Source: Nemertoderma westbladi
Taxonomy: Eukaryota; Animalia; Xenacoelomorpha
DNA length: 64,000 nucleotides
Reading direction: 5' to 3'
Assembly (NCBI GenBank): GCA_032718475.1
Contig: JAUCBJ010007765.1
Span: 1-64,000, forward strand
The notes under the pieces are model-generated. The model did not search any database, had not been told where the DNA came from, and worked only from the letters and a program-made list of their open reading frames with translations. Positions within the stretch are counted from its first letter, which is position 1, and every line of letters starts with the position of its first letter. Shown piece by piece: positions 15,919 through 64,000 of this stretch. Both the position numbers and the translations under genes were made by a program.

Positions 15919-15953
15919 TAAAATAACTATTTATTTGTTATTAAATCTTTTAG

Positions 15954-20405: not shown

Positions 20406-23400
20406 TGTGACGGTATCCAGTTGAGTTGACCCCTTGGTGCTAGCCTCACTAGCTTATTTGTCCCTGTGAGGTGGTTTGACCTCTCACCTTCCTTTGTGGC
20501 TTACGGCGTGTATCGCCCCCCCCCCCCCCCCCCCCATTTGGTTATGAGGTGAGATTATTACTGGTAATCTCACATCCCCAACTATATTGGTAAAATGCCA
20601 CTAGTCCCATTTTTGGTGGGTGATGCACGGAATGGAATCCGCTTACACTCCCCCCCCATGCTATCTTCCCGGTGAGAAGATAGCATCAACCTTAGGTGCG
20701 CTTCAATTCCGCTGGAATCCAATCTAATATTGGATGTGGGGTGGAATTTTCTTCTCGGGGTCGGCTTTCCAGGCCAATGGGTCTGTTATCACTACCCATC
20801 CTTGGTACATCTGCGAGCTATGTTGCACCAAGGTATCTGGCGTCTCTGTTTGAGATCATTGCCCTCACTCCTCACACAATTTTCCTCAAATTTTCTTCAC
20901 GGACCTTTGCTGTCCCTTCCTCTCTCACCAGTCCCTGTGGGACTCATCCTCCTCCACGCTCGCCCCCCACACTTGAATCTCGCACTTCCTCCACTTCCCC
21001 AATTCGAAAACCTCATCCCCATATTTTCCCCATCTTCGTACACTCAACCCATGTCTATTATTATTCTCAGCGCTCTTATCGAGTCCCACGCATGTGTGCA
21101 GCATGTCAATGGGATTCGTCTAATGTCTTGTCCTCCCAATTTAGTCAATTGGTCCCCGATCCCAGTAGCTAGTTGGGTTATATATGACTATAGTACTTAC
21201 ATTGATTATATTTGCTATTAATTAATTATTTTTAAGTACGTACATACTAATTGCACTTAATTAATTGCACTTAGGAGTTTGTACTGTTCCGATCATGTGG
21301 TGCCTTCCAGGCACACCCACACACCTGTTCCTGAGTTATAATTCGCTCCTCCTGTCTTCGGGAACCATCTGAGTTCCTTGCCCATATCGTCATCTTGCCT
21401 GGGCCGTATCCTTCCTTCCTGTTTATCCTTGAGGCTACTCATCCTCGCCGATCGCTTTGCAGGTGGTCCCACTGAGTGTCCCTCCTGTTTCCCTCTGGTA
21501 GCGTCCCACAAGATCATTTTCATCACCCGCGGCACGTGCTCCCCCAGAAAGTCCCTGAATTCGATTCTATTTTCTCTCTAGGTATCTTTGAGTGTTAATG
21601 ATCCCTCCGTACGATGCCACTGTTGCTACCTCCTGATACGTGAATGGTAGTCTCCTCTTGGTGATCTCCTGGTGGGCTTCCACGTTAATGCTAAAGAAGC
21701 CCCACCAGAACTCCTGGCCTTCATCCTTTGTCGTGTCATGACTCCGACGTCGGCCCACTACTCGAAGATCCGGAACTTCTCCTCGTCGTCCATCCAATCG
21801 CACTGGTGCTCAAAGTGCCCTCGAAACTTGCACTTTGAGCATCTGTTGTGCTACCTCGGACACACACCCATCTTATGGGTCGACTCGCGGCAGTAGAGAC
21901 ACACCGTCCCCTTCTGGAAACGGTACAGACAGTTCTTTTGCTGGTGGGTTAGTCTCCCACAGTAATCGCAACCATGTACCAATGTGTCCCGCCCCAAGTC
22001 GTCCTTGGCTCTGATTGGCCTCCTGGGTCTATGGAGCCGCTGGTGGGCAAACATCTGGATGCTGTCCTCCCTACCCATGTCGATGTCCTCTTCCACCCTC
22101 GGCATTGTTTCTCCAAACACTACCCGTGGTGCCATTCCCGGTTGTTCGCCCAAACTGATCGTACTCGCCGCGAAATCCATCTCCGGCTCCCCGTGCTCCC
22201 AGGTCCGCTTACCGGGTTTGTCCCAGAAGGCTCTCGTCCTGCTGGCCGTCACCACCCTCCCACCCACCCAGTCCGTATCCGAGTGGCCATTCCTCGCTAT
22301 CGGCAGCATCGCCCCGAACTCGTCCTCCTCCTCTTCCCCTGCTGGAGCCGCAATCCTCTCTATCGGCGGCATCTATTGCTCCTCGCTCATCGCTCTATCG
22401 ACTCATGCTCTTCTTCCTCTCCTGCTGGGAGTGGATCCGAACCCAGTAGCCTAGTTGATCCACTGTGTCCCTTTCCACCTTGGTATCCGCCCATGACTTT
22501 CCATCCTTCTAACTCCCCCCGTCTCTTTCTTCCAATGTTGCCCTCAGAGCCCCCTGGCATGGGCATTGCTTGCAATCCCAATGTCGACTGTCTCGGTGAT
22601 TCTTCCATCCAACCCAGTTCATCCCCCAGCCAAAACTCGTCTGAGGTCTCTGATCCCCACCTCTCTTCCAAGAGTTGGGCTTCGAGCTCACGATCCTCTC
22701 CCCTTATATCCACTTTTCTCTCCGCTGCCTCCCTCCTTTCTCTCCTGGCGACCTCCTCTAGTCTCCTCTCCTCTCCTCTCCTCGACCCTATCCGCCTCCA
22801 GTTTCTTCCATCGCTTGTACGGTGTGTCTACCCCTCTGTCCACTATGTGTCAGGTATCGAAGAATACCGACTCGCCCTTCAGCCCCGGGTGGTCTACAAG
22901 ACCTTCAAAGGCCACCTTAAAGGCTCTCCTGTGATTCAGAGGTGCTCCTGATAGTAGAAACGCCATTGGCTCCCTCCCGATAACCATGGTGATGAATAGG
23001 TTTAGTAAACCTATCATTATCCAATCCTCCTGTAAGATATATCTCTTCTGATATATCTTTATCGCTCCCCTCCGGAACTGATATACTTCCTGCTTTCCTG
23101 GTCTCGCTCCCCATTTTAGCAAGTTCGCAAGTTCCGCTCCGTATTCTTCCCGGAACTTGCCCCAGTCCATTGGCTTGTGGCAGACGAGCCCCATTAGTTG
23201 GCCCATCGCCACGGCTCTGCAATGTCCCGTGTTCTGCACCAATCCCAACCCCTTTGGTCTCGTCATAGCCATATAGACTACTTGCATGTCAAGGAGATTG
23301 GAGGTGTCCAGTCCAATAATCCTATCCGCGTCATCGCGGATCGCCGATCCCACCTTGACTGTAGTGTATCGCTCGTCCCGACGTCCTCCTCGTGAACTTT

Positions 23401-24428
23401 GCCTTCTCTCCTCGTCCGGCGCCGTACCGTAGGCCCCACCATCGCCGTTCTGGTGGGCCGTTCGCCGCCTCGGCCAGTGGTTGTCCGGCGACTTCGGTAC
23501 CTCGACCGCCATTGGAATCTTGCGTCGACTCGTCATCTTTCCCTCCTCGTTGTCGGCCGCCCTCCTCTTGGGTGTCCGGATCATCCCTCGCTGGCGAGTC
23601 CAGTGTGTTGGGCTGGTACCGCCTCGTCGTGGCCTCTCAAATAGTTTGGTCTGTATCGCTCGGGGTCCGCGGCGGTGTTCTTCCTCCTTCTGAGCCTTGC
23701 GGCGTTTGTTCGCTCATCTTATCCTCCTTCAGGGTTGTGGTCACAGTTTACTATTTGTTAAACTCGCTGGTTAGTTTTTGACTGTGACGATATCCAGTTG
23801 AGTTGACAGTGCTGAATACCGACCGGTGTAGGTTGTACGCGTCATTGCGTCGCTGGGCTGCTGGGCTGACGGCTGGATAAATATGTTTGGCCAAAGGCCG
23901 TTAGAAAGCAATGGAGTTAGTTGTCAGTATTGATAATCACAGCATTGATAATAGCACAGTCTGAATATAATAATATACAATACAAACAGTAACAGAAACA
24001 ACGACGGTCAAAAACTATTCTGGTCTCACAACCGTAAGGGAATCAACTAACTAAATCAGTGATTACAAGAGTTATATCATTAACACATATTGGTTTTAGC
24101 CCTACTACTGGGCGGCCTCTAATATCCAATGGATGCGCTCTTGTCCTCCCAATGTGCGTTCCTGCCCGCTATTGGCGTATGTATTAATTGTCACTTCACC
24201 ACTCCCTGTTGGCGTTACCCCTTGGTGCTAGCCTCACAAGCTTGTTTGTCCCTGTGAGGTGGTTTGACCTCTCACCTTCCTTTGTGGCTTACGGCGTGTA
24301 TCCCCCCCCCCCCCCCCAGTTGGTTATGAGGTAAGATATTATTGGTAATCTCACATCCCCAACTATATTGGTAAAATGCAACTAATCCCATTTTCGGTGG
24401 GTAATGCATGGAATTGAATCCGCTTACA
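20406..24428 (-). mobile_element. Internally deleted LTR retrotransposon carrying a decayed DEDDy exonuclease-zinc knuckle ORF
   Basis: LTRs 23783-24428 (5') and 20406-20647 (3', ~410-bp internal deletion), both TGTAAG...GTCACA on the minus strand; TSD TCTGT at 20401-20405 and 24429-24433; PPT GGGGGGGGAG abutting the 3' LTR; no RT, RNase H or integrase motifs seen. Confidence 0.92.
21567..23400 (-). pseudogene. Disrupted exonuclease (ExoII-ExoIII) plus 3 CCHC knuckles, homologous to the ORF at 61490-64000
   Basis: TVKVGSAIRDD, NLLDMQ, KFREEYG, LKW, QKRYILQE; knuckles CDYCGRLTHQQKNC, CLYCRESTHKMGVC and, after a stop, CSKCKFRGHFEHQC; then FE*WADVG..WWGFFSIN..LPFTYQE. Confidence 0.8.
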
Positions 24429-36600: not shown

Positions 36601-37679
36601 TAGTATTGGTAAACACAAAATATGTCGCGAAGATCGCGACGTTTGTGAAGCTCCATCTATAGTATTGGTAAACACAAAACATGTCGCGAAGTTCCACCTA
36701 TAGTATTGGTAAACACAAAATATCGCGTAGATCGCGACGTTTGCGAAGCTCCACCTATAGTATTGGTAAACACAAAATATGTCGCGAAGATCGCGACGTT
36801 TGTGAAGCTCCATCTATAGTATTGGTAAACACAAAATATCGCGTAGATCGCGACGTTTGCGAAGCTCCACCTATAGTATTGGTAAACACAAAATATGTCG
36901 CGAAGATCGCGACGTTTGTGAAGCTCCATCTATAGTATTGGTAAACACAAAATATGTCGCGAAGATCGCGACGTTTGTGAAGCTCCATCTATAGTATTGG
37001 TAAACACAAAATATGTCGCGAAGATCGCGACGTTTGTGAAGCTCCATCTATAGTATTGGTAAACACAAAATATCGCGTAGATCGCGACGTTTGCGAAGCT
37101 CCACCTATAGTATTGGTAAACACAAAATATGTCGCGAAGATCGCGACGTTTGTGAAGCTCCATCTATAGTATTGGTAAACACAAAATATCGCGAAGATCG
37201 CGACGTTTGCGAAGCTCCACCTATAGTATTGGTAAACACAAAATATCGCGAAGATCGCGACGTTTGCGAAGCTCCATCTATAGTATTGGTAAACACAAAA
37301 TATGTCGCGAAGATCGCGACGTTTGTGAAGCTCCACCTATAGTATTGGTAAACACAAAATATGTCGCGTAGATCGCGACGTTTGCGAAGCTCCACCTATA
37401 GTATTGGTAAACACAAAATATGTCGCGAAGATCGCGACGTTTGCGAAGCTCCACCTATAGTATTGGTAAACACAAAATATGTCGCGAAGATCGCGACGTT
37501 TGCGAAGCTCCACCTATAGTATTGGTAAACACAAAATATGTCGCGTAGATCGCGACGTTTGCGAAGCTCCACCTATAGTATTGGTAAACACAAAATATGT
37601 CGCGAAGATCGCGACGTTTGCGAAATTTCGCGATTTTCGCAATCTTCGCAATAATCGCGACGTTTGCGAAGAAATGTTC
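33670..37679. mobile_element. Foldback-type TIR element whose right arm has expanded into a 57-59-bp satellite
   Basis: GAACATTTCTTCGC at 33670 and GCGAAGAAATGTTC ending 37679; one inverted unit at 33740-33830. Confidence 0.75.
34160..37625. repeat. 57-59-bp CpG-rich satellite, about 59 copies
   Basis: Unit GAAGCTCCACCTATAGTATTGGTAAACACAAAATAT(GT)CGCGAAGATCGCGACGTTTGC head-to-tail. Confidence 0.97.
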
Positions 37680-41370: not shown

Positions 41371-41633
41371 ACTAGCCGCTGCCGCTCTTCGCTCCTGTCA
41401 CGTATCATGGCCTAAAGCCGATGAACATTTTGGCATATGGTTGATGACAATTGAGTGAAAAATGCAAAAAAAAGTTTGTAAGACTCTTTCTTTCATTTTG
41501 CCATATAGTTCGCAATATTTTGATTCAGGTTGTTTACATAGGTTAGGATAGGTATGGTTACAGTGTTATACCACACAGAAAGCTTCATAAGTGAAGGAAA
41601 TTTTTACTTTAATTTTTTACTGCGTATTTTCAG

Positions 41634-41768
41634 TTTGCGAAGAGCGTGAAGATCTGAGCGCCCACTGTGGTTTTTGGGCATCAGACGGACAGTGCCAGGA
41701 AAATCCTAGGTATATGTATAACTACTGTCAGACCAGTTGCAACAAATGTGGCGATAAAGCAACTAATG
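41634..41768 (+). CDS. Exon 4: ShKT domain 3
   Basis: VCEEREDLSAHCGFWASDGQCQENPRYMYNYCQTSCNKCGD; TTTTCAG| and G|GTAATT, 135 nt, phase 1-1. Confidence 0.9.
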
Positions 41769-41896
41769 GTAATTGGATAAGTATTTTGATTATTTAAATA
41801 ATTTCATATATTTATTGGTCAACAATATTTGTATACTACAGTAACTGTATAATATATTTTGCAATTTTGCAACATAAAACGTGTACTATTTACCAG

Positions 41897-42418
41897 AACC
41901 CACTACAGCCGAACCAACTACAGCCGAACCAACTACAGCCGAACCAACTACTGCCGAACCAACTAAGGCCGAACCAACTACAGCCGAACCAACTACTGCC
42001 GAACCAACTACAGCCGAACCAACTACTGCCGAACCAACTGCCGACCCAACTACAGCCGAACCAACTCCTTCCGAACCAACTACAGCCGAACCAACTACAG
42101 CCGAACCAACTACAGCCGAACCCACTACAGCCGAACCAACTACAGCCGAACCCACTACAGCCGAACCAACTACAGCCGAACCAACTACTGCCGAACCAAT
42201 TGCCGACCCAACTACAGCCGAACCAACTCCTTCCGAACCAACTACAGCCGAACCAACTACAGCTGAACCAACTACAGCTGAACCAACTACAGCCGAACCA
42301 ACTACAGCCGAACCAACTACAGCCGAACCAACTACAGCCGAACCAACTACAGCCGAACCAACTACAGCCGAACCCACTACAGCCGAACCAACTACAGCCG
42401 AACCCATAGAAACCATAG
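41897..42418 (+). CDS. Exon 5: (EPTTA)n mucin-like stalk, about 33 repeats of 15 bp
   Basis: TTTACCAG| acceptor, AG|GTAATT donor, 522 nt, phase 1-1; variation between units is mostly synonymous in the EPTTA frame. Confidence 0.85.
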
Positions 42419-43226
42419 GTAATTGGAAAGCATTTCAATATTGACTATTTTGTTTTATTTGCTGAAATGCATTATTTATTCCCGACTGCCGTTTACCACA
42501 ATATGTATAATTTTGCAAGTTTCAGCAAGCGAGGTCAATTAGCGAGGGGTAATAATAACTATCCTATAATTGTCATTATTACCGAATTATAGTGGGAGTT
42601 TCAAAATATAAGATTTTTTGCTATTTTATCCGGGTGCGAGATTTTCCCACTTGCTATTTTATCCGGGCGCGAAATTTTCCCACTTGATGACTCTTGATCT
42701 ATGATTAAACTTAGTCGCTGACACTCGGGAAGTTATACTGTACATTACGGGGTCGGCGAGAAATATAGCACCACATTTTCCCCATACCTAATAGTTTTTA
42801 GTCGATTTATTTAAATATATAATTTATGTAGCTGGCTAACTCCCGAAAAATATCATAACAAAGACAGTTGAAGCGATGAAATTATTAATGCATCGCGGAG
42901 GTATTCAATATTCTTTAACATAAAGTGCTTCTGTATCTGTATAAATTAAATTTATTCTGTATATGGATATTTCTAACACAATCAATTTATGTCATTTTAA
43001 TAAAGATAACAAATTTGTTAATTTATTCTAAATTGTTAAAGATCACAAATAACTAAATATAGGAATCAAATTAATTATCATTGCTCTGTAACTTTCTGAA
43101 TTTCTCAGTTTCTTGTAATTTCCAAGTTTTGTTAACATCAGTAGTTTTGACGATTGTGTTCTAAGATATTTTCATTCCTAATATTTCTCAATTGTGTTAT
43201 TCAATATCATTTATATTTTAAATTAG

Positions 43227-48359: not shown

Positions 48360-49730
48360 AGAATAAAATCTACTTTAACATTCTCGCTATGGGGGTTTTA
48401 AGGGTTGGTGATTTAATTTCTGATGTCAATTTTTACGACGTCAGAAATCTAGGCTGTCTGTGTATGTTTGTATGTCTGTTTGTCAGTCTTTCTATCAAAA
48501 AATAAGGAAGCATATTATGTAATAAAAACATTCGCCATGGGGGTTTTCCAGGTCTCTGACTTTATTTCTGATGTTAGTTATTACGACTGACCAACTCTAG
48601 GCTGTCTGTGTCTCTACGTCTTAAAAAATGTCTGTATGTGTCAAAAAAATAAGGAAGCATATTATGTAATAAAAACATTCGCCATGGGGGTTTTCCATGT
48701 CTGTGATTTTATTTCTGATGTCTTTTTTTTTACGACTGACCAACTCTAGGCTGTCTGTGTCTGTATGTATGTCTGTCAGTCTTTCTGTCAAAAAAATAAG
48801 GAAGCATATTATGTAATAAAAACATTCGCCATGGGGGTTTTCCATGTCTGTGATTTTATTTCTGATGTCTTTTTTTTTACGACTGACCAACTCTAGGTTG
48901 TCTGTGTCTGTATGTATGTCTGTCAGTCTTTCTGTCAAAAAAATAAGGAAGCATATTATGTAATAAAAACATTCACCAGGGGGGTTTTCTAGGTCTCTGA
49001 TTTCATTTCGGATGTCAGTTTTTACGACTGACCAACTCTAAGCTGTCTGTATCTGTATGTATGTCTGTTTGTCTGTCAGTCCGTCTGTCTAAATAATAAG
49101 GAAGCATATTATGTAATAAAAACATTCGCCATAGGGGTTTTCCATTTTTCCGATTTCATTTCTGATGTCAGTTATTTCGAGTGACCAACTCTAGGCTGCC
49201 TTTGTCTGTATGTATGTCTGTCAGTCTGTCTGTCAAAAAATAAGGATGCATATTATGTAATAAAAACATTCGCCATGGGGGTTTTCCAGGTCGCTGACTT
49301 TATTTCTAATGTCAGTTTTTACGACTGACCAACTCTAGGCTGTCTGTATCTGTATGTATGTCTGTCAGTCTGTTTGTCAAAATATAAGGAAGCATATTAT
49401 ACATACAGTCACAGTGAGTGGTGAGTCGAGCAGACGTGAAAACTGACATCAGAAATGAAATCAGAGACATGGAAAACCCCCATGGCTAATGTTTTCATTA
49501 CATACTGTAGTATGCTTAACTGTCAGACAAACAGACATACATACAGACACAGACAGCCTAGAGTTGGTCAAACGTAAAAAAAAATTAACATCAGAAATGA
49601 AATCAGCGACCTGGAAACCCCCATGGCGAATGTTTCGAATGTTTCTGTTACATAATATTCTTCCTTATTTTTTGACTGACGGACAGACAAACAGACATAC
49701 ATACAGACACAGACATCCTAGAGTTTGTCA
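48360..49730. repeat. ~140-bp tandem repeat (about 7 copies) followed by about 2 inverted copies
   Basis: AAAATAAGGAAGCATATTATGTAATAAAAACATTCGCCATGGGGGTTTTCC... units; orientation flips near 49420. Confidence 0.9.
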
Positions 49731-50944
49731 TTTTATAGCTGTCAGCACTTTTCGTGCACCATATTGGGTGACAAAAAGTGTAATTTTTCACATCTGGGTA
49801 ACCCTAAAACATGTTACATTGTAATCAGCACCTCAAAAAACCCCATATGGTAAATTCCACGTTGTCGGACGTTATGGACATTCTCAATTTTTGAATGTTT
49901 TTCTTTAAAATTACAAAAATACTTGAATTTTCGACATCAGATTGCGTTTAATAAATGAGACTATTTATTAAACTTTCAGAATAACATAAATACTCTGCAT
50001 TGGGAAACGTTACTCTTCTCGTGCAGATTACTTTTAAAAAAGTGTCGGCCAAAATAGGACACTTTTTATTGTACATATTATATTTTTGATTGCATTTAAT
50101 GCCGAAGACTGGTATGTTATCATTGTTGGGCTCAAATTGTAGCTCAACTATTCTATTTTTTGAAAATGTTTTCATAATTTCATTGCATATCTTCTGTAGC
50201 CGATATCTCCAATTCAAAGTTGTGCGGAATGGTGTCGGACGTTACGTGTCGGACCTTGCATAACAATTAGCAATATTTAGCCACCTCTGTCGACTTTAAT
50301 TTTCGTCTTTGGAATGTATTCTACATATCACTAGAACCGCCTTCATCTACAGATTCTGAATCTGAAAACCATTTTAAATTTCACCAACACTTGCCAAATA
50401 TATTATCAAAATACTAAGGTGTGAATTTTGAGTCGAAATCGCAGTTATTGAAAAGTATTTTTATTTATTTATGCCTTTACACTATACACTGCAATTTAGA
50501 CATTAATTACGGTACATTAAATACGGCAGTGATTTTTTATGTCCTTTTATTTGACTTTTTTTGTCCTCCTTTTTTTACGAATTGTGCATAATGACCTTTG
50601 TTGTCCTTTTAATGACTTTTATTGTCCTTTTAATGACTTTTTATGTATGTATTTCTTCAAACTGTCAGACTGCTGATTTCTGGACTGTCACACAGTTGAT
50701 TTCAACATGCCTATGCCAAAACATTCAAAATTTGTTGATTTCTGGTCTGTCGGACAGTTGGTTTCACTATGCCTGTGCCAAAACATTCCATGATTCCACG
50801 ATTTATAGACTATGAGAGAGAATTCCATATGCGCCTGTGGTAAAAGACTCTAAATTTAATAGTTTGTGGTTGTTGTCGATAATCGATTACCACATGACGT
50901 AGCAAAACACTCATTTTATAGCCAAAAACAATTACCAATTGATG

Positions 50945-51535
50945 GAAAGGATGAGCAGGTTAAGGCCGGATTTTCTAACCAAAACAATAAACAGTCACTT
51001 TACCAAATCAGGGAAAGGATCAGGTTACAGAGGCGGGATTTTCTAACCAAAACAATAAACGATCATTTAACTAATTGAGGGAAAGGAGCAGGTTGCAGAG
51101 ACGGGATTTTCTAACCAAAACAACAAACGATAACATTACCAATTGAGAGAAAGGAGCAGGTTACAGATGCGGGATTTTCTAACCAAAACAATAAACAGTC
51201 ACTTTACCAAATCAGGGAAAGGAGCAGGTTACAGAGACGGGATTTTCCAACCAAAACAATAAACGATAACATTACCAATTGAGAGAAAGGAGCAGGTTAC
51301 AGAGGCGGGATTTCCTAACCAAAACAATAAACGATCACTTAATTAATTGAGGGAAAGGGGCAGTTTACAGAGGCGGGATTTTCTAACCAAAACAATAAAC
51401 AGTCACTTTACAAAATGAAGGAAAGGAGCAGGTTACAGAGACGGGCCTTTCTAACCAAAACCATAAACGGTCACTTTACCAAATCAGGCAATGGAGCAGG
51501 TTACAGATGAGGCGGGATTTTCTAACCAAAACAAC
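50945..51535. repeat. ~69-bp tandem repeat (about 8-9 copies)
   Basis: GGAAAGGAGCAGGTTACAGAGGCGGGATTTTCTAACCAAAACAATAAAC... recurring. Confidence 0.88.
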
Positions 51536-54407
51536 CGGTCAGCCGGTAGGCCTACCAGTACCGTATTTAAATGGTAGGATACACAGTAGGCCTACAGCAG
51601 TACCGGTGCCGGTACCGGTACTAAAATACAGAAATGCCTGCTTTATACTGTACCTACATCTGTACATACAATACAGCAAAATAGTGCTATATATACTAAT
51701 ACCGGTACTGATAGCCTGAGAGAACAGCAGTAGAGAAACCGGTAGCATGGAACCTAACATTAGATTTTTGGAGGACATAAAAAATGAAAAAAAGGACATA
51801 AAAAATGATTTAAACAGACAATAAAAATTATTGCGATTAAATAATAATAGTGTCGGACGTTACAGGTGTCTGACGTTACAAACTTAATTCACTGAAATCA
51901 CAGCCCTTATGGTAGCCTGGATTGCTGTAAATGGCAGAAGAGACGTCATCTTACGTCGGCATTAGGTCATTTTAATTTCCATATGATTTGCCATACAATA
52001 GAGAAGTAATTGAGAAAAAATGTAAAAAAAAGTGTCGGACGTTACAATTGGGTACAGGTAGCGTTTAATGCTTTTTGTATGAGAAGCCTTCTATGTTTAT
52101 GGCGTTGAACTACCTCATTGGAATGTGCATTACGGCTGATTACAATGATACCAAGGATAGATGGATGAACAGTACAAAAAATATTTTTTTAAGAAAATAT
52201 TTTTTTTCGTTTTTACGTGTTATCTTGATGATGGTCGATATAATCGCAAAATTTCCTACTTTATACCCTCAAATCAATGTACATTTTGTCAAATTCGAAA
52301 AATTTATGAAATTTTACCCAATAAATGCTTATTTTTTAAAGTTTTATTTTTTCATATCGTGTCCCATTTTCTGTGGAAATGCCCATATGGCATTGAATAG
52401 TGATCGAAAATCGTATCTGCAAAAAATGTCGTTTTTTTTGTTTGACACCATGAAAACTGATATTTCACAGAAACCACACCAGTTTATTTAAAGTTTTAGT
52501 CACTTTTAAAAAATCGAAATAGGCCTACAGTATAAAATATACCATCTAAAAGAGCGAAAAATTCTCTATCAAATAGGGCAATAAACTCAATTTCGATTTT
52601 TTGACGAATAACGCCATTCTATATGCACCGCACCATGTCCTCGGATATTGTGTCGAAATTAAGTGTTCAGTGACGCCCCCCCCCCCCCCCCCCCCCCCTC
52701 CTCGCTCAGAATAACTGCCGTGTACCTGGTTAAATTTGACCGGAGTCTCTCTTTTTTAAACGCTAGTACCCCTACAGTAGCTAAATATTGAATGCTAAAA
52801 TTAAAATTCTGAACCACCCAGTAATTAAGGAGAACGGAGGTGAAGTTTTCTTTAGGAGAGCCGTGAAACTGAATCTGATTTAGGGGTGATGTCAGTGAAC
52901 TACGACACTATATTTCAGAACATTGTGTATTACTGCAAACAACGTGAAACCTAACATGTCCTCTAGACCAAACATGTAGGCCTACTGCTAGAACATTGTA
53001 AACAATAAAATTAACAAAACTATCCAAGCTATTTTCATCGACAAATGAAATAATATTGATCATTTAAAGCGATATTTTAATAAATATAAAATAATACGGT
53101 AAATGGAGTAGCCGGTGCAATGTGGTAAAATATGAAACATAGTAACATACTGTACAGTACAGTAAATACATACATACTGTAGGCCTACTGTACATAGTCC
53201 AGTATAATAGTACAGTACGGTAGGCCTAATTAATTAGGCGATAGTCAGAGGGTTATTTATAAATCTCACAACTTACCCGAAATTAAGGGATACTTCTCTT
53301 TCCCTTTTATTTGACTTGCTGGTGTGCCTGGAGATTTCGATTTCGTTTTTGAAAACATAATTGTTATCGATAATCGATTACAGTAGGCCTACCACTGTAT
53401 TTATCTATTTTATTATTATCTCCCTAAAAAGGAAACTAATTTTTCCTTAAAATAATTTGGACAAATTATTAGTGCAATCATAATAAATCGTAATTAACTA
53501 CGGGAATATCAAATTATTTATTGTTAACCTGATGTAAACAAATTAGGGGGCTAATTTCGATATGTTTAATGTCCATGGAAACGCCAAAGTATTGATTTCA
53601 TTTATCGCTGGTAGGCATGATTTTTGTACTGTACCACCTTGATAATAGTGAGTTTAAGATGGCCTTGCTTATACTATTGACTCAAGACATAAAAAGACTC
53701 CAATTAATTTCCGAATGCTGTATATTATGCATACAGTATGCACTACTGAGTCTCCGGTATGTTGTGAGGCTTCAAACAGCGTTTCTAAACTATAGTTTAT
53801 GTCGCCATGACTTCACACGGGGTGTCCGACTGTACACGGTAAATATGGTCGCCATGGATGGCCTCAAACGAGGTCTAAACTATAGTCCAGGGCGCCTTGA
53901 CCTCAGATGAACAACTTATTTCAGCAACATGTAGGCCTACTTAGGCATTATTAGTTTGACTATAATCCGGATTTACAGCCCCATCTACTGTATCATCCGC
54001 GATCACTTCTTTCTTCGAGCTAATTTAATGATATTCCTAACCAAACTCTTGTACTGCACACAAACATTATAGACCCACCCAAACCTACGGTGTGTGTGGT
54101 CTTTAACCAAGGCGTACTTTGGTACGCAAAAGACGACTTTGTTAACCCGGTACGTAATTCTACATCTCAAAAACAATACCGCGTGGGCAGTACTACAGTA
54201 ATTACAGTGTAACATTATGTGAAAATTTAAATGAAATTTATTATTATAAATTTATTATCTAAATATATTAATTATAAATAATTATTGAACTGGTTTAAAC
54301 AAACAATCAAGAAAATACGTATATATTATTTGTGTTACTGTATTAAATAATCAAATTTTGGCTACAGTAGGCTTATTCGTTTGTGTTACTGTACAAGTAT
54401 TGCTCAA

Positions 54408-56084
54408 CTACGTTGATGTAGGCCCACTACTGTTTTCAAACGATTCTCTTTTAGTTTTAGTTATAATCTCGGTCACATGTCGGTTCGTAATATTAACGGT
54501 TGGAATTGGTTTGTTTCGTAGCGACACGCTATTGCAAGATATGCTCTTCCGTCTGGTTGGATCACTGGTTTTAAAGTTCCGATGACGTCGCCTTCCAATC
54601 ATGTCGTCTATAGTGTGACTGTGATTGTGACATTGGAGATCGCAAAGCACAGTTTGGGAGACACGAGGGGAAAGGTATGGCGATTGTGTAAAGTCTGCTG
54701 GACTACGACTACACGCTCTGTTGTAATTCGGCATGTTTGCCCTAATGTTAGAGTGACGTTTACCAATGGGATGTGAGTATTGAGGTTTCGGTAGTTCCGA
54801 ACTGTGAGTCTGTGACCAATAGGAGCTCACAGTGGAATTGTAAAGGTTCTTCATTGGATTCTCATTTTTACTTGTATTATCCCAACTGATTTTCGGAATT
54901 TGAGCCTTTATGACGTTATTTAGATTCGCCCATCTTCCAACGGAGATGCTACCTGGGACCACCCAATGAGCAGCCGTTGCTATATCTAAGGAACTACATA
55001 CCACTTCCTTCCTCCCTTCCTCTGATCCCAGACTTTGCTTCGCTGAATCATAATTGTTGTGCTTCACAATTTCTGCTTCTAATTCACCCAAATGCCGGCC
55101 AACGTTGTTGAGTTCTTCTATTAACATCTGTTTATTTGTTTTGTTTAGTTTAGGAATGCTGGACTCATCGGATAGACTCCTGATAGACCCACACCCCTTG
55201 TTTCCGCCATCGCTGTCAACGACTTGTGTAATGTACTGCTTGTTTAACGCTACGACATTCTTCTCTAAATTATATTCTGAGCTAATTGCAACTTGTAGGA
55301 GTTTCGACCACTTATCTTCCAGAAGTGAAGTTCTCCCACACAATTGATCATCGGCGTTAAATAAGCCAAGTAAAATAGTGACCAAATCGTCTTTGCTGAG
55401 AATCTCATTCCGAATATTTTGGACAAACTGAACTTTGTCACTTAATGTTTCTTTTGCGTCATTATTTGAATTATTTATAGTTTCCAAAATCCCCAAAAGC
55501 CATGTTTGCAGACTTTTTATCTTCTCAATTATATCGTTATTTTCTGTTTTATTAGTATTCGCAAGATTATTTTCGAGGTCTTTTAGGACTGGCTCTATTT
55601 TATTACCCCAATCTTTGAATGACGTTGTAACGTCTTCTACGGTTTCATTTGTTGATTTATGAACTCCACTTTTGATTTTCTGTTGCGCTGATTGTTCAGT
55701 AATGACGTTTAAATCTTCTAAACATCCCTCCGGGGATATTTTGATGGTCATAGCGGTTGCACCTAAAGTTTCATCATTAGCAATGTTACTTCTAGTCTCA
55801 TCTCCGTCAAGTACTGCCTCTTCAGCGTCAGGTACTGTGTCTACATCTATGGCGGATGAAGGTTTGGTATCTGAAGCATTATTTTCTTCATTTAAGTTAT
55901 TATTTGTAAGTTCTGTATCTGCGGGCCATATTTTTTCATCTTTGTTTTTTCTGTCTTCCGGTAAAAGTTTTTCAGATGAATCATTTATATTGCCAATCGA
56001 ACCACCAATTGGGTTGACTGATCCACTTTTCCTTGAAATCAAATTTTCCCGAGCGCATTTATCTAACATAACTTCCATATCCAT
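54408..56084 (-). CDS. 558-aa uncharacterised protein; acidic disordered N-terminus, one spectrin-repeat-like helical segment, Ser-rich basic tail
   Basis: 1.7-kb non-repetitive ORF with ATG in AT-rich flanks; IKSLQTWL..IRNEI..V..L..LEDKWSKL..EYNLE resembles a spectrin repeat. Confidence 0.65.
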   Translation of the reverse strand: MDMEVMLDKCARENLISRKSGSVNPIGGSIGNINDSSEKLLPEDRKNKDEKIWPADTELTNNNLNEENNASDTKPSSAIDVDTVPDAEEAVLDGDETRSNIANDETLGATAMTIKISPEGCLEDLNVITEQSAQQKIKSGVHKSTNETVEDVTTSFKDWGNKIEPVLKDLENNLANTNKTENNDIIEKIKSLQTWLLGILETINNSNNDAKETLSDKVQFVQNIRNEILSKDDLVTILLGLFNADDQLCGRTSLLEDKWSKLLQVAISSEYNLEKNVVALNKQYITQVVDSDGGNKGCGSIRSLSDESSIPKLNKTNKQMLIEELNNVGRHLGELEAEIVKHNNYDSAKQSLGSEEGRKEVVCSSLDIATAAHWVVPGSISVGRWANLNNVIKAQIPKISWDNTSKNENPMKNLYNSTVSSYWSQTHSSELPKPQYSHPIGKRHSNIRANMPNYNRACSRSPADFTQSPYLSPRVSQTVLCDLQCHNHSHTIDDMIGRRRHRNFKTSDPTRRKSISCNSVSLRNKPIPTVNITNRHVTEIITKTKRESFENSSGPTST

Positions 56085-59000
56085 GGTATGAATTACGGGT
56101 TTATAAACTCATTTAAATATTATTATAAATATGAATATGATTTTTTTTATATTTTAAGGCCTAATTTTTTTGTAATTATGTAATATTCTTTATGTAATAT
56201 TAATTGCCTACTCTCTAATATAATTTGAGTAATATGATTTCTATGCTGACAAACACACTAACTAAAAAGTATTATGTTGTAATTCAATCATTAACGCTGA
56301 AATAAGCAGACATTAATCCAAAATTAATTATGTCAATTATTATACTGAAATCAATCAAACGCGCAATGCAATGAAATATCATAATAATGCCAACGCAATG
56401 GTAAATGGATGTTAATTTAAATGTTACACTTGGCATTCAATGATTTATTACAACATTTCGCGATTGATAACAGTAGACATTTCCTTCGTTATGTATTCGC
56501 GTATCGTTCATCGTTATAGACCACCCAGTAGGCCTACTATAGTTAAACCTTCTACGGACTTCCTATCCTAGGAGTTTGGCAATTCGCACGTCCATTAAAG
56601 CGTAGCGCTACGTATTACTGAAAATCCTATCCAATTTGCCTCCAACTAATAAACCTTGTCAAGAAAGTTGAATTAAAATAATACTGTAAATGCAGTATCA
56701 TATGTATTGTGTTTGCGAATTTCTGAACCGAAAATAACAACTCCTTTAGTTCCTACATCAGGTCCACCACCGGATTGCTTTAATTTAATTTGGCAACCAA
56801 ATCAAAATCCATTCGATATCTCGAGCAGAAATATTTATAGTGTTTTCCATAACAATACAGTAATGTAATGGTAACCGCAACAATACTGTACAGTAGGCCT
56901 AGAGTCTACGTAATTTCTTTATCGTGATTTACTCACAGCGGCTTTGATTCATGTTAAGAGATAGTATGAAAGCCTACTGTATTTGATATTGATATGATAA
57001 AATCACCATATCGGGAAATGTAAAGTAAATTACTACAAATACTACACTGTACTGTATAAGATAAATATAACTCATGATTTGCGTGTACTTTAATATCGGA
57101 CCATAAGAATCGCGTAAGGTTCTCCTCTTGCAATTTAAATTCCAGTTTATAAAACTTATTCTGCAGTTACAGTTTAGTCAATGGACTTCTTCCGGTAGAA
57201 TATTATTTATACCTATAAAATAAAAGGTAATAACTATATACTGTATAGGCCTATACGTCATTGTTCAGAAAGTAGCACATTATAGTGTTACGGCACGAGT
57301 GATCATAGAACGAGGGCCGGTGCAGATTGTTGTTATCCTACTGTACACTATATCAAGTGTTTACAGGGTGCAACAAGCGCATGGCTTTCTTACCCTTTAC
57401 TTACACATCATACAATACTTTTCAGTATCAGTACCAGTATTGAAATCGTGGCTGAGACTTGCAGTTACGGCAGTACGGTTACTTACTGATAGTCGCCTAT
57501 TCCTATTTATTGCAAGATTGCAAGATAAGTTCAAGTTGTCTGGTTGTTGCCTATTTAGACAACAATGATTCTATGTCAGTATGTGTTGCCAGTATAGGCA
57601 TCACTGGCATCAGACAGTCAGAGCCGAAAAGTGTGCCCCCTAGCGCGGGTTTCCTGCTTATGTAAGTTGTAAGTTTTAATATTACAGTATTACAGGATGT
57701 ACTGTACAGAAAAATAAAGTAGAAAAACAAGCATAACCGGTACAGTTAACAGTTCTACGTACAGTACTTTCTCAATTCATTCGCCATTTTTGCTGATTGG
57801 CAGATTGGGAAAATTATTTCTTTTTCCTACAGTTCATACTACTAAACACAATTTAGATTTTCTAAATTTTTTTCCAACCGTTTAGAAACTTTTCACAATG
57901 AACATTTTGAGAAAAATCCAAAAAGTGTCCTGAAAAGAAGGGATGTGTAACACTTCCCAAGCATGAACACTTCATAAATCATAAATATTCAACCTTTTGT
58001 TTCTCCCTTACTGCCTTAGGGCCCTATACAGTTATAAGCTACCGGTACTGAGCTAGGCAAAGGTCAGTACAGCAGTAGGTTCATACTGTCATACAGTCAT
58101 ACTGATACCAGGATACTGTTGGATTTGCGATTTGCGTAAGAACTAGGGACTAAAGTGTCCGTTTATTGTTCTTCTGTTCTTTCTATGCCCTACTGCAATA
58201 CTGCCTTCCAGCCTTATCCAGTTATCTGGCAGCCTTGCTTTAACAATTTTTGCTAATGACAGAATGAAGCTTTTGTTTTCGTCTTGGCACTTTAAAATTG
58301 TATAATCATGTAGGCGCTGAAACTGAAATCGTTTACTAGCATAGGCCTAGTTTAAGTTATCGGTATACTGTCAGACTGTCTGACTGTCAGTTTGCGATTT
58401 TACCTGTTGCGCTGTTGGTTTGTGTCTTTTGTTGTCGGTGGTACCCAGGCTGCCAGGTCAGCAGGTACCGTATGTAAATTGGAGAGATACGCCTATTCCT
58501 ACTATCGGAAGAGACGGTAACAATACCTGCAATATCCTACTGTAAAGTTTGTAAATCAAATCATAAATCCGACCTTCTCACCAAAACAGTAAACCCCAAG
58601 TAAGCGAATATATTGCAGTATCGATCTCTTTTAACCGGTGAGGCAGAAAACAGTCTACGAGCAGACAAACTTCGATAAAACAAAATCCCGCGCAGCGAAT
58701 CCTAAAATCAGGCTGACTCACTGACGGACTAAGAGGCTCGTATACTTTGCCGCGGTGTGATTTATATGGTTGGGCAAAGGGACGCTAGCTAGGTATAGAG
58801 CAGATTTGGAGATGTCTAACTAGCGAGCAAAGTGCAGTAAGGACGAAAGTTAATTTTATATATTTCGAGGTGTAAATAATTTCTAACGCGCGTGTGTTAA
58901 TTCTGAACGGTCAAAGCAGTTTTGCTCCTTCACATATATAATTACTGGGTACGGTGTGTATTTTACGAATATTCTAATTTTATAACTTGTAGGTCCAATA

Positions 59001-59841
59001 CTCACGAATGGTAAGGTTCCTTCCCCTCTTGCGTATTTCCAGGACTCAAATTCAGGCATAAGGTTAATACTACGCCCAGAATTCGGCAATTTTAGGTACC
59101 AGGTCCCTGATACTAAGAAGAGATGTGTTAGTTTACTACGGTAGGCGTACGGGTACTAATAGCTATCCTGGCTCCTATCTAGAATTTTAGTCACCCAGGT
59201 AGTCCGGGTAACTTCCTATTAGGGCGTTGGCGGGGACACGGTAGATGTTAGTATATCCCTGATAGCCTCAATTTATTTGCGCCTAGTGTAAACTGCCCTA
59301 CCGCCTGAACGGTACAATCCCAATTCAGGTGAAAACACAGCAACCCCCTAGCCTACAAGTTCTGATGTAACGGACACCGTTGTACGGCAAATAGTCGCAC
59401 ACACACCTGTACTTAGCAAGAGTTAAGCGTACAGTTTGCTGCACCCTAACCAATGTGTATGCCTTGTACCGGTGTGCCTACGTCCTATCTGCGTACTAGT
59501 ATCTGCTCTCTCTCCCTCTCCCCCCGTAGGAATATGAAGGTCTACTGCGGTTTTTCCTGAATCAAGACAGTACAGTCCCTATGATGTAATTTTGGGCTTA
59601 CAGCGTGTCACTACGTCTACCTTTTGATCTTTGGTCTTACACTTAGGTAGCAAGGATCGAACGCTGTCTAACCTTTCAGGCGATGGGCGAATAACTTTAA
59701 ATGGTATTGCGGGTTGTCTCTCGTCTACATTCCCGTGATGTTCCCGTTCATTGCTGCGGCCCGATCTCTAGCTGGCCATCCTGTCCCTGAGTTTGTTCAC
59801 CGTAGTGAAACCATATTAAAACAGATAGAAAAGGGCTGAGA

Positions 59842-60478
59842 TGTGACTAGTATTTCTGACTTTATTACAAAACATATAATAACTATTATACAATAAACAA
59901 TGTAATCTGAAATAAGACAGAAAGCGAATGATGGAAATTGCAGTGAATAACTAATGAACAAATCGCACCTTTATATACTAAATTTGTGCTGCAATCAATC
60001 GAGAAAATTCTCGATTGTTCTATGGGTTCTAACAAGGTTTTAAAGATAGCTTATTGGTCCAGCTAATATATAACTTGCACGACATTGGTTACAATCAAAT
60101 AACTACAGCCTTATTGGTACAGATAAATGCAATTAATTTGTAGCGGTTAATTTAAATGAGTTGAAATTCTGCACAAAAAATGATTCGCACTTACTAGGAT
60201 TCGAACTCGATACCTACTACACATATAATTTCCAACGCTCTACCAACTGAGCTACTGAACCACTTGACCGATAGATGCATAATAGATAGAACCAATACTA
60301 ATGAGAACTCAAAGCAATCTTTACAAAGTTAATTCGAATAAAATAAAATTTTGAAAATCCACGGCATTTAGGGAATATAATTCTATACCGCTCCATGAAA
60401 ACAGGATATTATCGTGCATAAATATACGGTTTTCACCAATAATCAATCAAACTATAGAATACTTAGGGCGTACTTACA
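59842..60478 (-). promoter_or_regulatory. LTR-like U3-R module downstream of the exonuclease ORF
   Basis: Minus strand: three CCAAT boxes ~30 bp apart (60117, 60088, 60057), GTATATAAAG (59978-59969), TCATT Inr (~59957), AATAAA (59866-59861); TGTAAG and GTCACA at the proposed ends. No adjacent PPT, so boundaries are tentative. Confidence 0.4.
60190..60261 (-). pseudogene. tRNA-like Pol III cassette (A and B boxes)
   Basis: GGTTCAGTAGCTCAGTTGGTAGAGCGTTGGAAA..GAGTTCGAATCC; D arm intact, acceptor and T stems do not close. Confidence 0.55.
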
Positions 60479-60496
60479 TATTTACAATTAAGTTTC

Positions 60497-60875
60497 AAAC
60501 AATACTTCCTTTCTACGTAATGATTCGATACAAAATAATTACAAATTCAAACTTTACGTATTTAAGGCTTTACTAAGTAAGTACAATATAAATCTAAATT
60601 AAATTCACCAATATAAATCTATTGCATCTCAAATATTGCATAAATTCAAACAATTACAAATACAAATAAATGAAAACAATGAAAACAAACAAACAATACT
60701 TCCTTTCTACGTAATGATTCGATACAAAATAATTACAAATTCAAACTTTACGTATTTAAGGCTTTACTAAGTAAGTACAATATAAATCTAAATTAAATTC
60801 ACCAATATAAATCTATTGCATCTCAAATATTGCATAAATTCAAACAATTACAAATACAAATAAATGAAAACAATA
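60497..60875. repeat. Near-perfect 194-bp tandem duplication in an AT-rich 3' region
   Basis: CAATACTTCCTTTCTACG... begins at 60500 and again at 60694. Confidence 0.9.
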
Positions 60876-61489
60876 AGAAAGGCTCGCAAGTCTTCCATCT
60901 ACTATTGCATCTCAAATATTGCATAAATTCAAGTAATTACAAATACTTTCGTACCTAAATGTAGATTGCATAGGTTTGGAATAATTACAAATATGAGTCT
61001 TTCTGAGCACAAAATTTTCTGTCTATAAAACTTTCTCTTTAGGTACAAATACTGCTTATAAAATGTAAATTGCATAATATTCGGAACAATATAAATTGCA
61101 TAAGTTGGACTCTTTAGGTAAGTTCGGAATAATTACAAATATAAAATATAAATTCTTACTAAATATAGATCTTACTAAATATAAGTCTTTACTTAAATAT
61201 AAATATAGACTGCATAAGTTTAGAATAATATAAACCTTTGCATCTCAAATATGAAACATAAATCTTTCAAATATAAGTTCCTTCTAAATATAAACTTTCT
61301 AAATTTCATAAATTCGGAACAATACAAATTACATAAGTTTTGAATAAGCACAAATATAAAATATAAGTTTTTACTAAATATGAGTCCCTTTCAGAATACA
61401 AAACTTTCTAAATATAAAACATATAATTCAAATAAATCACAAATCATAAGAAAGGCCCACGAGTCTTCCGTCCACCCTTGCCCTCCCTT

Positions 61490-64000
61490 TTATCGCTTAG
61501 TAGATCGAGCCCTGCCGCGTCCTCGAAAACTGCGCACAGGTGACTTTGCTCGCGATATGGGACTAATGGGGCGAGTCACTGGTTTACTTGGGACGTTAAG
61601 AGACGGTGCGACTATTTCCTCACAAATTCGTCTATTTGGCATCCCAAAACCTCGACCAATTCCTCGTGACCGATCAGTTGTCACTACAGTTGGTAGAACG
61701 TCTGGGAACGCGTGAGAAGCGGACGACGCAGACCCAAGAGTAGCTTGCGCCCCCTGTTGATCAGCTGGTGTATGTCCCGATCCTCCTACTGGTTCTCTTG
61801 GAAGTGATACCGTATCCCGAGTAACTCGAATAGTCGGCTCAACTCCCTTGCGTTCTTCTACATTAATAATTTTCTTCAATTGTTGGCCCACTTTCTGGAC
61901 CCGTATGATCCTACCCTGCCCGTCCTCCCGAGGGTGACGTGCAGACGGCGCAACCGGAGTGGCTGATATATTCGTCGCCTCTAGGACCTCTTCTTCCTCG
62001 AATACGCTCGCTCGTATACGTTTATGGTAAAACGCGGCTCGGTACGCCCATGCGACGGTTAACCAAGCTCCTTTATTCCGCTTTTCGGTTCGGAAACGAT
62101 CAAATTCACCATACGTGATACGATTTACGACTTTCTGAAAATTCCACGTGTTTTTGTTATCCGGGTGAATCTGTAACAGATACTCGCGCACCACTCGAAA
62201 TCCGCTGTCGTGGGGCAAAATATCGACAACCTCGATAAGTTCGTCATATTGAGGCATAGCGGAGATGTATCCTTCCGACATCATCGTTTGAGGATTTACC
62301 GCCCAAAATCCGAGATGCGCTCTCATCGGAAACCGTCTTCTCTGTGCCGATACATGTTCGTCGGCCAAATCTTCCCACTCATCAAATAACTTCCTCACGA
62401 GTTTAACAGATTCGTGTTCATAGGGTATGTCTCTTAGTTGGCATTCAGATGCTCGATGTCCCTTTATATTGCAGTAAGTACATTGAGCCATAAATCTCCA
62501 GCAAGTATAAAAGGTATGAGACCCTTGATCCCCACACCATCCACAGATTAGCTGAGTCGTAGTAATGTGCTTTCCACTGCACTTTGCCATATGATGTCCA
62601 GCGACGCCACATTTACTACACATCGTATTAGCAGGGTACCACACTCGTTCGTATATAAGATCTCCAATCGGTCGAGCGCTTCCTCCCATACTATAATCGT
62701 AATCATCTGGGTCTATGGGTTGGTAGGTTTCTGAAGGTTGTATGCAAACTATAGCATCTGTTGCTTCAAGTTGTCGAATCTCCGTCTGAGATTTCTTCGG
62801 GAGGTTCCTTTCTATCTCAAGAAGTTCCTCTAAAGGATCGTCGGCGATCGTAGTAGTTACGTTGAAATCATCACCGAGGTGACCGATAGGCGCGCGCGTC
62901 TGCCGTGATTCATCCGTAATTTCCACAATACGTTCTCCTTCATAGGGTAACAATGTAAACATAGATGGTCTTTCGATAAGAGATCCCGCACAGCGAAGAT
63001 ACACGTCTCGAAATATGCTAAATCCTGCTCGAGTAAAGGCATTACACTGAGCGTCGGAGTTGTAGAAGGGTTCAAGGAATCGTCTAAACACGTCGGTACG
63101 AATTCTCCCTTCCATGTAGAACGTATGATCTTCTCCGAGACAAAGTGGATGTCTTTTGAGAGTCCGAGACACAATGTCGGCGATTAGGCAAACATTCACT
63201 GACGACTCTATCGCTAAATAATATTGTAAGACCGCTCTTGGAGGTGACGTAATAGCCCAATACACGCATCCTCTCCATTTAAGCTGTGATTCAAACTCAC
63301 TCATATCTGGAGTATCACCTTCTCCATAAGTTTCAATATACTTGTTTCTTTTACCTTCCTTATAATCCCAATTGAATAACAGGTAGGAAATGTATCCAGT
63401 TCCAGTCTTCTGAGTATTATACTCACGAAAATATCCCTGTTCTATAGACCACAGAATAAGAGGTCGAGTGTCGACGTATGGTGTCGGTAGTCGGTCATCG
63501 CTGTCCGTCATGCCGGCGAAGTCGCTAATTAGATCCTCCCTTACTCCTGATCCAACCTTTACAACAGTTTTATCTAAAATCATGTTTCTTACCATCTTCG
63601 GTAACATTCTAGCGTCAATATTACAAGCTTGGTCCATCTTCTTTACTATATCGGTGATAAGATGGTGTCGCTTTGTATTCGCTGGAGGTATCGGCATTCG
63701 TTTGTCGCTCCTCTGTCTACTGAAAACGTGCAGGACTCCGTCCGCCGCTCTAATCTGTATAGTCTTAGAAGTCAAACTCTGCTGATGACTGCCGCCCTCG
63801 TTATCGTAAAACATATAACCGTTTTCCTGAAACGATCTAAACGTCCTAGTCCATTCATCCAATAATTCTTCCGAAGGTTGCCAAATCTTCTCTATATCCT
63901 TATCCTCATCGAAACGAATAACCTTACCTCGCCAATCTGCGGCAATATCCGTATCCGACTCGAAGGTTCCGATTCCAATCCATAAACGAATCGTCTTGGT
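61490..64000 (-). CDS. DEDDy-type 3'-5' exonuclease plus triple CCHC zinc-knuckle protein, probably retroelement-borne; 5'-truncated by the window (at least 836 aa)
   Basis: Frame stays open to base 64000. ExoI MFYDNEG, TIQI, LPKMVRNMILDKTVVKVGSGVRED (ExoII), YVDT, LQYYLAIE (ExoIII-like); knuckles CSKCGVAGHHMAKC, CGWCGDQGSHTFYTC, CTYCNIKGHRASEC; RG-rich basic tail; intronless. Confidence 0.85.
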   Translation of the reverse strand, partial: TKTIRLWIGIGTFESDTDIAADWRGKVIRFDEDKDIEKIWQPSEELLDEWTRTFRSFQENGYMFYDNEGGSHQQSLTSKTIQIRAADGVLHVFSRQRSDKRMPIPPANTKRHHLITDIVKKMDQACNIDARMLPKMVRNMILDKTVVKVGSGVREDLISDFAGMTDSDDRLPTPYVDTRPLILWSIEQGYFREYNTQKTGTGYISYLLFNWDYKEGKRNKYIETYGEGDTPDMSEFESQLKWRGCVYWAITSPPRAVLQYYLAIESSVNVCLIADIVSRTLKRHPLCLGEDHTFYMEGRIRTDVFRRFLEPFYNSDAQCNAFTRAGFSIFRDVYLRCAGSLIERPSMFTLLPYEGERIVEITDESRQTRAPIGHLGDDFNVTTTIADDPLEELLEIERNLPKKSQTEIRQLEATDAIVCIQPSETYQPIDPDDYDYSMGGSARPIGDLIYERVWYPANTMCSKCGVAGHHMAKCSGKHITTTQLICGWCGDQGSHTFYTCWRFMAQCTYCNIKGHRASECQLRDIPYEHESVKLVRKLFDEWEDLADEHVSAQRRRFPMRAHLGFWAVNPQTMMSEGYISAMPQYDELIEVVDILPHDSGFRVVREYLLQIHPDNKNTWNFQKVVNRITYGEFDRFRTEKRNKGAWLTVAWAYRAAFYHKRIRASVFEEEEVLEATNISATPVAPSARHPREDGQGRIIRVQKVGQQLKKIINVEERKGVEPTIRVTRDTVSLPREPVGGSGHTPADQQGAQATLGSASSASHAFPDVLPTVVTTDRSRGIGRGFGMPNRRICEEIVAPSLNVPSKPVTRPISPISRAKSPVRSFRGRGRARSTKR

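Follow-up and report, generated by a model that had tools for sequence, protein, structure and literature searches.

The question raised by this locus is what is encoded by a long, intact reading frame that runs to the end of the window (the whole stretch of 64,000 nucleotides of Nemertoderma westbladi DNA that was analysed), what carries it and what its product could do. On the minus strand, a stop-free frame of 836 codons extends over 61490..64000; it is open at its 5' edge, which is the window boundary (64000), and the encoded protein has at least 836 aa, with its start outside the window. The longest ORF produced by 200 base shuffles of 61001-64000 was of 235 aa, against the 836 aa of the real sequence. 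The frame described in the first-pass annotation is thereby confirmed, and all the DnaQ-like motifs quoted there are present in it.

From the N-terminus, and always on the minus strand, the protein comprises an EXD2/WRN-type DEDDy exonuclease-like domain (63161..63838), with D66, E68, D156, Y261, and E265 as candidate catalytic residues, an acidic and poorly conserved linker (62636..62965, approximately aa 346-455, 21% D+E), three tandem CCHC zinc knuckles (62441..62620, aa 461-520), an unnamed post-knuckle domain (62006..62428, aa 525-665) and a basic tail rich in R, P, S, and G (61493..61990) that has no aligned counterpart in the relatives described below. The three knuckles reported at first reading are indeed present, their C-x2-C-x4/5-H-x4-C motifs starting at aa 461, 486, and 507; they resemble the fingers of nucleocapsid, Air2, and Lin28 and are matched weakly by Pfam zf-CCHC (E=0.011, below the cut-off). 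The post-knuckle domain is delimited by the family alignment and by pairwise shuffles: its first ~90 residues (F-E/D-x-F/W-x-D, then R, GF, and Y-x-x-L) recur in the relatives, and it has no credible match in Pfam or PDB, the best being to a Scone-R entry over 37 residues (E=0.005). The tail had been called RG-rich, a generous label since it contains just 4 RG pairs in 166 aa, while its basic, R/P/S/G-rich composition stands. No capsid domain was detected in the protein by Pfam or by PDB-sequence comparison, and NCBIfam returned nothing except a sub-threshold match to DNA polymerase III epsilon (E=0.11).

The protein belongs to a small and divergent family. A phmmer search of 1.84 billion representatives with aa 1-670 as query (E<=0.001) gave five matches, two of which (P0001 and P0003) match via the knuckles only and were dropped as family members. 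The other three, P0002, P0004, and P0005, share the whole layout; they are unnamed proteins of 558-715 aa from ENA contigs, and their identity to the intact ORF protein in the alignment is 24, 24, and 17%, respectively. The invariant columns of the family alignment include D66, E68, and D156 (in all four full-length sequences), the K-x-G-S block, the knuckle ligands and, after the knuckles, E543, A546, D547, and R555. In shuffle tests of the intact ORF against the three relatives the exonuclease part gave z=12-20, the knuckles z=9-15 and the post-knuckle part z=4.8, 2.8, and 0.1, scores that are not independent of the search, since the relatives were retrieved with the intact ORF as query. The same 1.84 billion representatives yielded no close annotated cellular homologue by phmmer. 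A word-index protein search gave no matches either for the single protein or for alignment A1 and, with the five-sequence profile A2 of the N-terminal domain on longer proteins, retrieved P0004 itself only; this is weak evidence of absence, because the search missed members of its own query. No family members were found by locus searches of metagenome and viral contigs.

A second copy of the gene, now decayed, is present in the window (21567..23371, minus strand) and comprises the ExoII-ExoIII region, a purine-rich linker, three knuckles and a post-knuckle block. Nine stops interrupt one frame between 22852 and 21760, and the last block lies in another frame. When the six frames of the window were scanned with a profile of P0002, P0004, and P0005 (rows taken from an alignment that had included the window protein), the decayed copy was matched over the knuckles and the following block with E=6e-16 and over ExoII-ExoIII with E=2e-4, the next unrelated match having E=3.2. 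Compared directly, the two copies agree beyond shuffled sequences in the knuckles (z=9.1, reached by 0/500 shuffles) and in ExoII-ExoIII (z=4.3, 1/500), with 21% identity across the part of the exonuclease that can be aligned. For ExoI no alignment with the decayed copy was obtained (z=0.3, a score reached by 176 of 500 shuffles), a DNEE motif at ~23553 was rejected as its ExoI for the same reason, and the two post-knuckle blocks taken alone are not significant between the copies (34/500 and 79/500). The block-for-block alignment claimed by eye therefore holds for the knuckles and ExoII-ExoIII and fails, in the pairwise comparison, for ExoI and the post-knuckle blocks. A plain tblastn comparison of the two copies reaches no significance (E=5.9 and 7.8), and it is the profile that finds the homology; the absence of DNA similarity between the two elements was confirmed (no blastn match at E<=1). 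Taken together, these comparisons identify the decayed copy as a true, if distant, homologue of the intact ORF. The suggestion of an old family also agrees with the identities, which are 17-24% to the three outside proteins and no higher between the window copies.

As regards the type of the N-terminal domain, profile A2 was searched against PDB sequences at E<=10 and gave eight matches, the top four of which were human EXD2 (6.2e-5), mouse WRN (0.0028), Egalitarian (0.031), and human WRN (0.042); the remaining four consisted of another entry for Egalitarian and of noise from SAS-6. Neither Rrp6 nor RNase D figures among these eight matches, and no HRDC domain was found by Pfam in any family member; judged in this way, the family would not belong to the Rrp6/RNase D group, in which the exonuclease is accompanied by an HRDC domain. 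The Pfam comparison put forward at first reading was only partly rewarded, with the sub-threshold zf-CCHC match mentioned above and no single member passing the cut-off for PF01612. In the Atlas, the features of aa 40-360 reached PF01612 clusters at 0.92 (lead-level), behind three unnamed clusters at 0.92-0.93, and the structure search with P0002 gave PF01612-bearing clusters in ten rows out of ten, each below the bar for naming a family. Structure prediction, also proposed earlier, was similarly mixed: the AlphaFold models of the window protein, made from one sequence and from four, both have pLDDT ~31 and the latter gave no Foldseek match at E<=0.001, while the Atlas model of P0002 resembles a PF01612 protein of 210 aa (best TM 0.73 by target length). 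The exonuclease assignment thus rests on the profile matches, the conserved acidic residues and the P0002 model. These support a DnaQ-like, exonuclease-like domain of EXD2/WRN type, which narrows the WRN/EXD/Mut-7/RNase D layout recognised by the first-pass annotation.

The catalytic positions fit this assignment, the D-x-E of ExoI and the D of ExoII being kept and aligned to the ExoI and ExoII region of EXD2, with ExoIII in register. The last motif is Y-x3-E in both window copies and in P0004 and Y-x3-D in P0002 and P0005; an acidic residue is therefore present at ExoIII in all five aligned members, and a canonical DEDD-y set is found in two of the three outside relatives. The Glu noticed early on in both window copies is real, but it is no constant of the family, two of the five members having Asp. 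Such a replacement may weaken catalysis.

The decayed copy lies inside an LTR element, a fact absent from the first-pass annotation. All the parts of this element are on the minus strand: a 5' LTR of 646 bp (23783..24428), a 3' LTR of 242 bp that lacks ~410 internal bases (20406..20647), a 5-bp target duplication on the two sides (24433-24429 and 20405-20401) and a G-rich purine tract just before the 3' LTR. Both LTRs begin with TG and end with CA, and they differ by 12 mismatches over 235 aligned bases. Directly after the 5' LTR there is an 11-nt primer-binding-site candidate (23772..23782) of the self-priming type, exactly complementary to 24017-24007 (position 412-422 of the 5' LTR), a match found in 20 of 20000 Markov-simulated LTRs; the TGG of a tRNA-type site is absent after this LTR. 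By its TG...CA repeats, target duplication, purine tract and primer-binding site, the carrier of the decayed copy is an LTR retroelement. No Pfam matches to gag, reverse transcriptase or integrase were obtained in the three minus-strand frames of 20659-23790, and a GPY/F remnant of integrase suggested by eye at 20660-21000 had no Pfam support. The gag-pol coding capacity of an autonomous element was thus not found, which leaves two readings of the element: a derivative formed by deletion, or a non-autonomous unit whose single gene was the decayed ORF.

The surroundings of the intact copy were examined with contigs from four public runs, mapped on 57500-64000. In X2 and X3 the summed depth, which is not a copy number, amounts to ~30-40 in all but one of the four flank bins (that one having 600-870), climbs near 58500 to tens of thousands or more (>50,000) and continues through to the window edge; single X3 contigs in the ORF have depths of 7,000-10,300, against ~20 for those of the flank. 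The depth profile of X1 is different and uneven. The intact copy therefore lies in a high-copy repeat that stops sharply on the right, where it ends in ...ACA at 58473. In X2 and X3 the depth is ~2-4 times greater over 58600-60500 than in the ORF, with a step down near 60540. The ORF is followed by an AT-rich (25% GC) 3' untranslated stretch (60502..61489, minus strand) that contains a 194-bp duplication and many deletion variants among copies, and within it by a candidate polypurine tract (60514-60505, minus strand); in 58401-61490, pure runs of ten purines at most three bases from a TG occur solely at 60501 and at its duplicate. From the depth profile, the purine tract and the ends, 58473..60501 (minus strand, TGT...ACA) fits a ~2-kb 3' LTR placed after a 1-kb AT-rich spacer. 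A purine tract directly after the stop codon (61474) was also considered as the start of the LTR, but 60501 agrees better with the depth profile. The 3' LTR stays a candidate because the 5' end of the element lies beyond the window, and the fall in depth towards the 5' side could also mean 5' truncation.

Neither a hammerhead nor a tRNA was found near the intact copy, Rfam giving no matches at E<=1 in 57500-61600. The terminal-repeat hammerhead of Penelope-like elements and Terminons is thus not seen in 57500-61600, and the second element has a target duplication and TG...CA LTRs. No gag or pol was seen for either element, the intact copy being cut by the window edge. The intact ORF is the last before the candidate 3' LTR, and the decayed one is the last before the 3' LTR of its element. 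Moreover, of the ten variants that fall in the intact ORF among the best-supported 40 of 218, a small and selected sample, seven are synonymous (22-29% expected, p=0.002-0.009) and none creates a stop, and the ORF is apparently under purifying selection. Carriage by a retroelement, proposed at first reading, is now supported by the homologue inside an LTR element and by the high-copy repeat around the intact copy; the ORF is very probably LTR-element cargo with a DEDDy-type domain.

What this cargo would do is best approached from the RNase D of T. brucei (TbRND), in which the first two of four CCHC fingers hold nucleotides R5-R9 and two cations carry out the cleavage of the 3' end (PMC7797062). 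Since the same parts stand in the same order in the window protein, the same trimming logic is suggested: an accessory gene product of LTR retrotransposons in which the knuckles would hold single-stranded RNA at 5-9 nt before its 3' end and pass this end to the two-metal active site of the EXD2/WRN-like domain. The substrate would be the element RNA, or reverse-transcription intermediates, in a ribonucleoprotein particle; Gag and Pol would come from upstream ORFs or in trans, and the post-knuckle domain might, as a guess, bind a partner such as Gag. To this full mechanism, a 3'-5' RNA trimmer probably acting on the RNA or intermediates of the element itself, we assign a probability of roughly 0.45. 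Trimming of the element's own RNA is preferred because the simplest role for cargo that selection maintains in a retroelement is in the replication of that element, but sequence alone does not tell RNA from ssDNA, nor element RNA from host RNA.

It is possible, though unlikely, that the protein instead shields the element from silencing, by trimming or sequestering piRNAs or siRNAs or by acting as a decoy for EXD1/Mut-7-like components. Its nearest named relatives do include EXD-type proteins of small-RNA pathways or with RNA-binding roles (Egalitarian), and P0002 reaches an EXD1-like cluster in the Atlas at 0.80, which is below the reliable range. On the favourable side, too, TbRND trims small guide RNAs (PMC7797062) and a silencing role for DEDDy ORFs was raised by Rodriguez et al. 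(PMC5408684), who nonetheless saw no clear relation of ORF3 to copy number. Mature animal piRNAs, however, are 2'-O-methylated at their 3' end, a modification by which many 3'-5' exonucleases are blocked. Rather improbable is a pseudo-nuclease, i.e., a domain weak or dead through the Glu at ExoIII (three of five members) in a protein that would serve as an RNA-binding chaperone or packaging adaptor, its knuckles taking the part of a nucleocapsid. In its favour, the knuckles look like those of nucleocapsid, the ORF remnant is the sole coding region found in the second element, behind the primer-binding site, and DEDD derivatives that have lost activity are known, among them EXD1 and Maelstrom (PMC5408684). 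It is countered by the invariance of the ExoI D/E and of the ExoII D in the full-length sequences and by the acidic ExoIII of every aligned member, and the protein has no detected capsid domain.

The exonuclease substrate of WRN is DNA, EXD2 acts on both RNA and DNA, and CCHC knuckles also bind ssDNA; a ssDNA exonuclease can thus be envisaged, with the task of trimming the ends of cDNA or removing aberrant cDNA while reverse transcription or integration proceeds. Dada DNA transposases carry an inserted DEDDy domain, for which a role in 3'-end processing has been proposed (PMC3706591). Nevertheless, TbRND, which among proteins of known mechanism comes nearest in architecture, is an RNase and LTR elements transpose without such an enzyme, and the chance of this reading is small. 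The least probable explanation is that a piece of a host gene was captured passively and does nothing for the element. The complete decay of the second copy would fit it, but two elements without DNA similarity both carry the gene, the intact copy keeps its 836 open codons at high copy, its variants are mostly synonymous among the best-supported 40 of 218, and no close annotated cellular homologue was found among the 1.84 billion representatives searched. Beyond the preferred RNA trimmer, one could imagine a whole class of non-autonomous, self-primed LTR elements with the exonuclease-triple-knuckle protein as sole gene, which would borrow Gag and Pol from autonomous partners and give them in exchange a nuclease that disables small-RNA silencing; the protein would then be a piRNA antagonist encoded by retrotransposons and spread across animal lineages, a picture that we consider decidedly improbable.

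To our knowledge, enzymatic cargo genes are rare in LTR retrotransposons. In the literature searched, DEDDy cargo has been reported only for bdelloid rotifers, with no activity shown (PMC5408684), and the present family appears to be a separate acquisition, of EXD2/WRN type and provided with its own RNA-binding module. Being intact, high-copy and apparently under purifying selection, the gene is therefore a ready substrate for the question of how a nuclease benefits an element; should its targets be small RNAs, the protein would give animals an example of silencing countered by a transposon-encoded factor.

Among known systems, the Tf1/Sushi group resembles the second element in the 11-nt primer-binding site complementary to a site in its own 5' LTR, with no tRNA-type TGG. 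Tf1 self-primes through 11 bases (PMC7175516), and self-priming elements are listed in PMC6934838. The second element differs in having no reverse transcriptase or integrase that would place it, and the self-priming type leaves the superfamily unfixed, since this mode of priming, reported for gypsy elements of the Tf1/Sushi group, is predicted in some copia lineages as well (PMC6317226). EXD2, WRN exonuclease, and Egalitarian (PF01612 clan) give the best profile matches of the window family over ExoI-ExoII; they are, in contrast, cellular genes without knuckles, the similarity is remote and no member of the window family passes Pfam.

The bdelloid DEDDy ORF3s occur in the Juno/Vesta LTR retrotransposons and in the Athena/Terminon retroelements, have a DEED motif and no demonstrated activity (PMC5408684; restated in PMC6431247, PMC5718144, and PMC6338049); the Juno/Vesta ORF3 is proposed to process the 3' ends of element RNA (PMC5408684). 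Like it, the window ORF is a stand-alone DEDDy-type ORF of an LTR element, with an altered acidic motif, and is the last before the (candidate) 3' LTR. The rotifer proteins are RNase D-like with DEED, whereas the window family has D-E-D-E or D-E-D-D and is nearest to EXD2/WRN, a distinction drawn from the published descriptions of the ORF3s and not from their sequences. Moreover, the accessible account speaks of knuckles in gag and pol only, besides a Cys-His-Cys motif in two ORF3s, unlike the three tandem CCHC knuckles and extra domain of the window family, whose elements also show no pol in the window.

TbRND (PDB 7C42 and 7C45; PMC7797062) has in common with the window family a DEDD exonuclease domain followed by a linker and by tandem CCHC fingers. 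The knuckle region of the intact ORF matches 7C45 weakly (E=0.35), and the top Atlas feature match of P0002 is a mostly euglenozoan PF01612+zf-CCHC cluster (0.87). Unlike the window protein, which has three fingers behind a linker of >150 aa, an additional domain and a mobile setting, TbRND is described as a cellular enzyme that trims guide RNAs and carries four fingers, with a linker of 28 aa (PMC7797062), and the shared layout is probably convergent, since the exonuclease profile has no match to TbRND at E<=10. The fusion that the first-pass annotation did not recognise from any element is therefore known as an architecture in TbRND, but no retroelement ORF with the exonuclease, three knuckles and extra domain was found in the literature searched (Repbase, Dfam and most subscription papers lying outside it). 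Without any claim of membership in either family, the window protein would ride in LTR elements as the rotifer ORF3s do and follow a TbRND-like design; both the joining of an exonuclease to tandem CCHC knuckles and DEDDy cargo in LTR elements have precedents, whereas the searches made did not turn up the two combined as LTR cargo.

Tandem repeats occupy several parts of the window, with units of 40 bp (13915-15950), 57-59 bp (33700-37660), about 147 bp (48384-49725) and 68 bp (50895-51574), the 57-59 bp and 147 bp arrays carrying inverted copies at their borders. Endonuclease and reverse transcriptase pieces of decayed LINE-like elements were found at 3055-3588 and 10869-11480, which are together covered by weak matches to Exo_endo_phos and DUF6451, and at 39106-40134, where the remnant was recognised by eye.

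Two long intact ORFs, of 329 aa (12186-13175, forward strand) and 566 aa (54408-56108, reverse strand), gave no Pfam match over the cut-off and are likely host exons. A host gene, secreted or mucin-like, is probably also represented by a ShK-like domain exon (41630-41755, forward strand; PF01549, E = 1.8e-8) and the AEPTT tandem-repeat ORF directly downstream of it (41878-42444).

Within the candidate 3' LTR of the intact exonuclease-like ORF, A-box and B-box tRNA-like motifs were spotted by eye at 60180-60262 (reverse strand), a stretch with very high sequencing depth in contigs of public runs and for which neither ARAGORN nor Rfam returned a hit; it is possibly a SINE insertion.

The second element, which bears the decayed homologue of this ORF, looks like an invertebrate LTR element. 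A short distance beyond the outer side of its 5' LTR lies an 818-bp MITE-like element (24544-25361), whose inverted arms are long (152 nt, 91%). Its primer-binding-site candidate (23772-23782) has an 11-nt complement at 24007-24017 in its own 5' LTR, an arrangement of the self-priming type, a mode for which the cited literature names fungal, vertebrate and some plant elements (PMC7175516; PMC6317226; PMC6934838).
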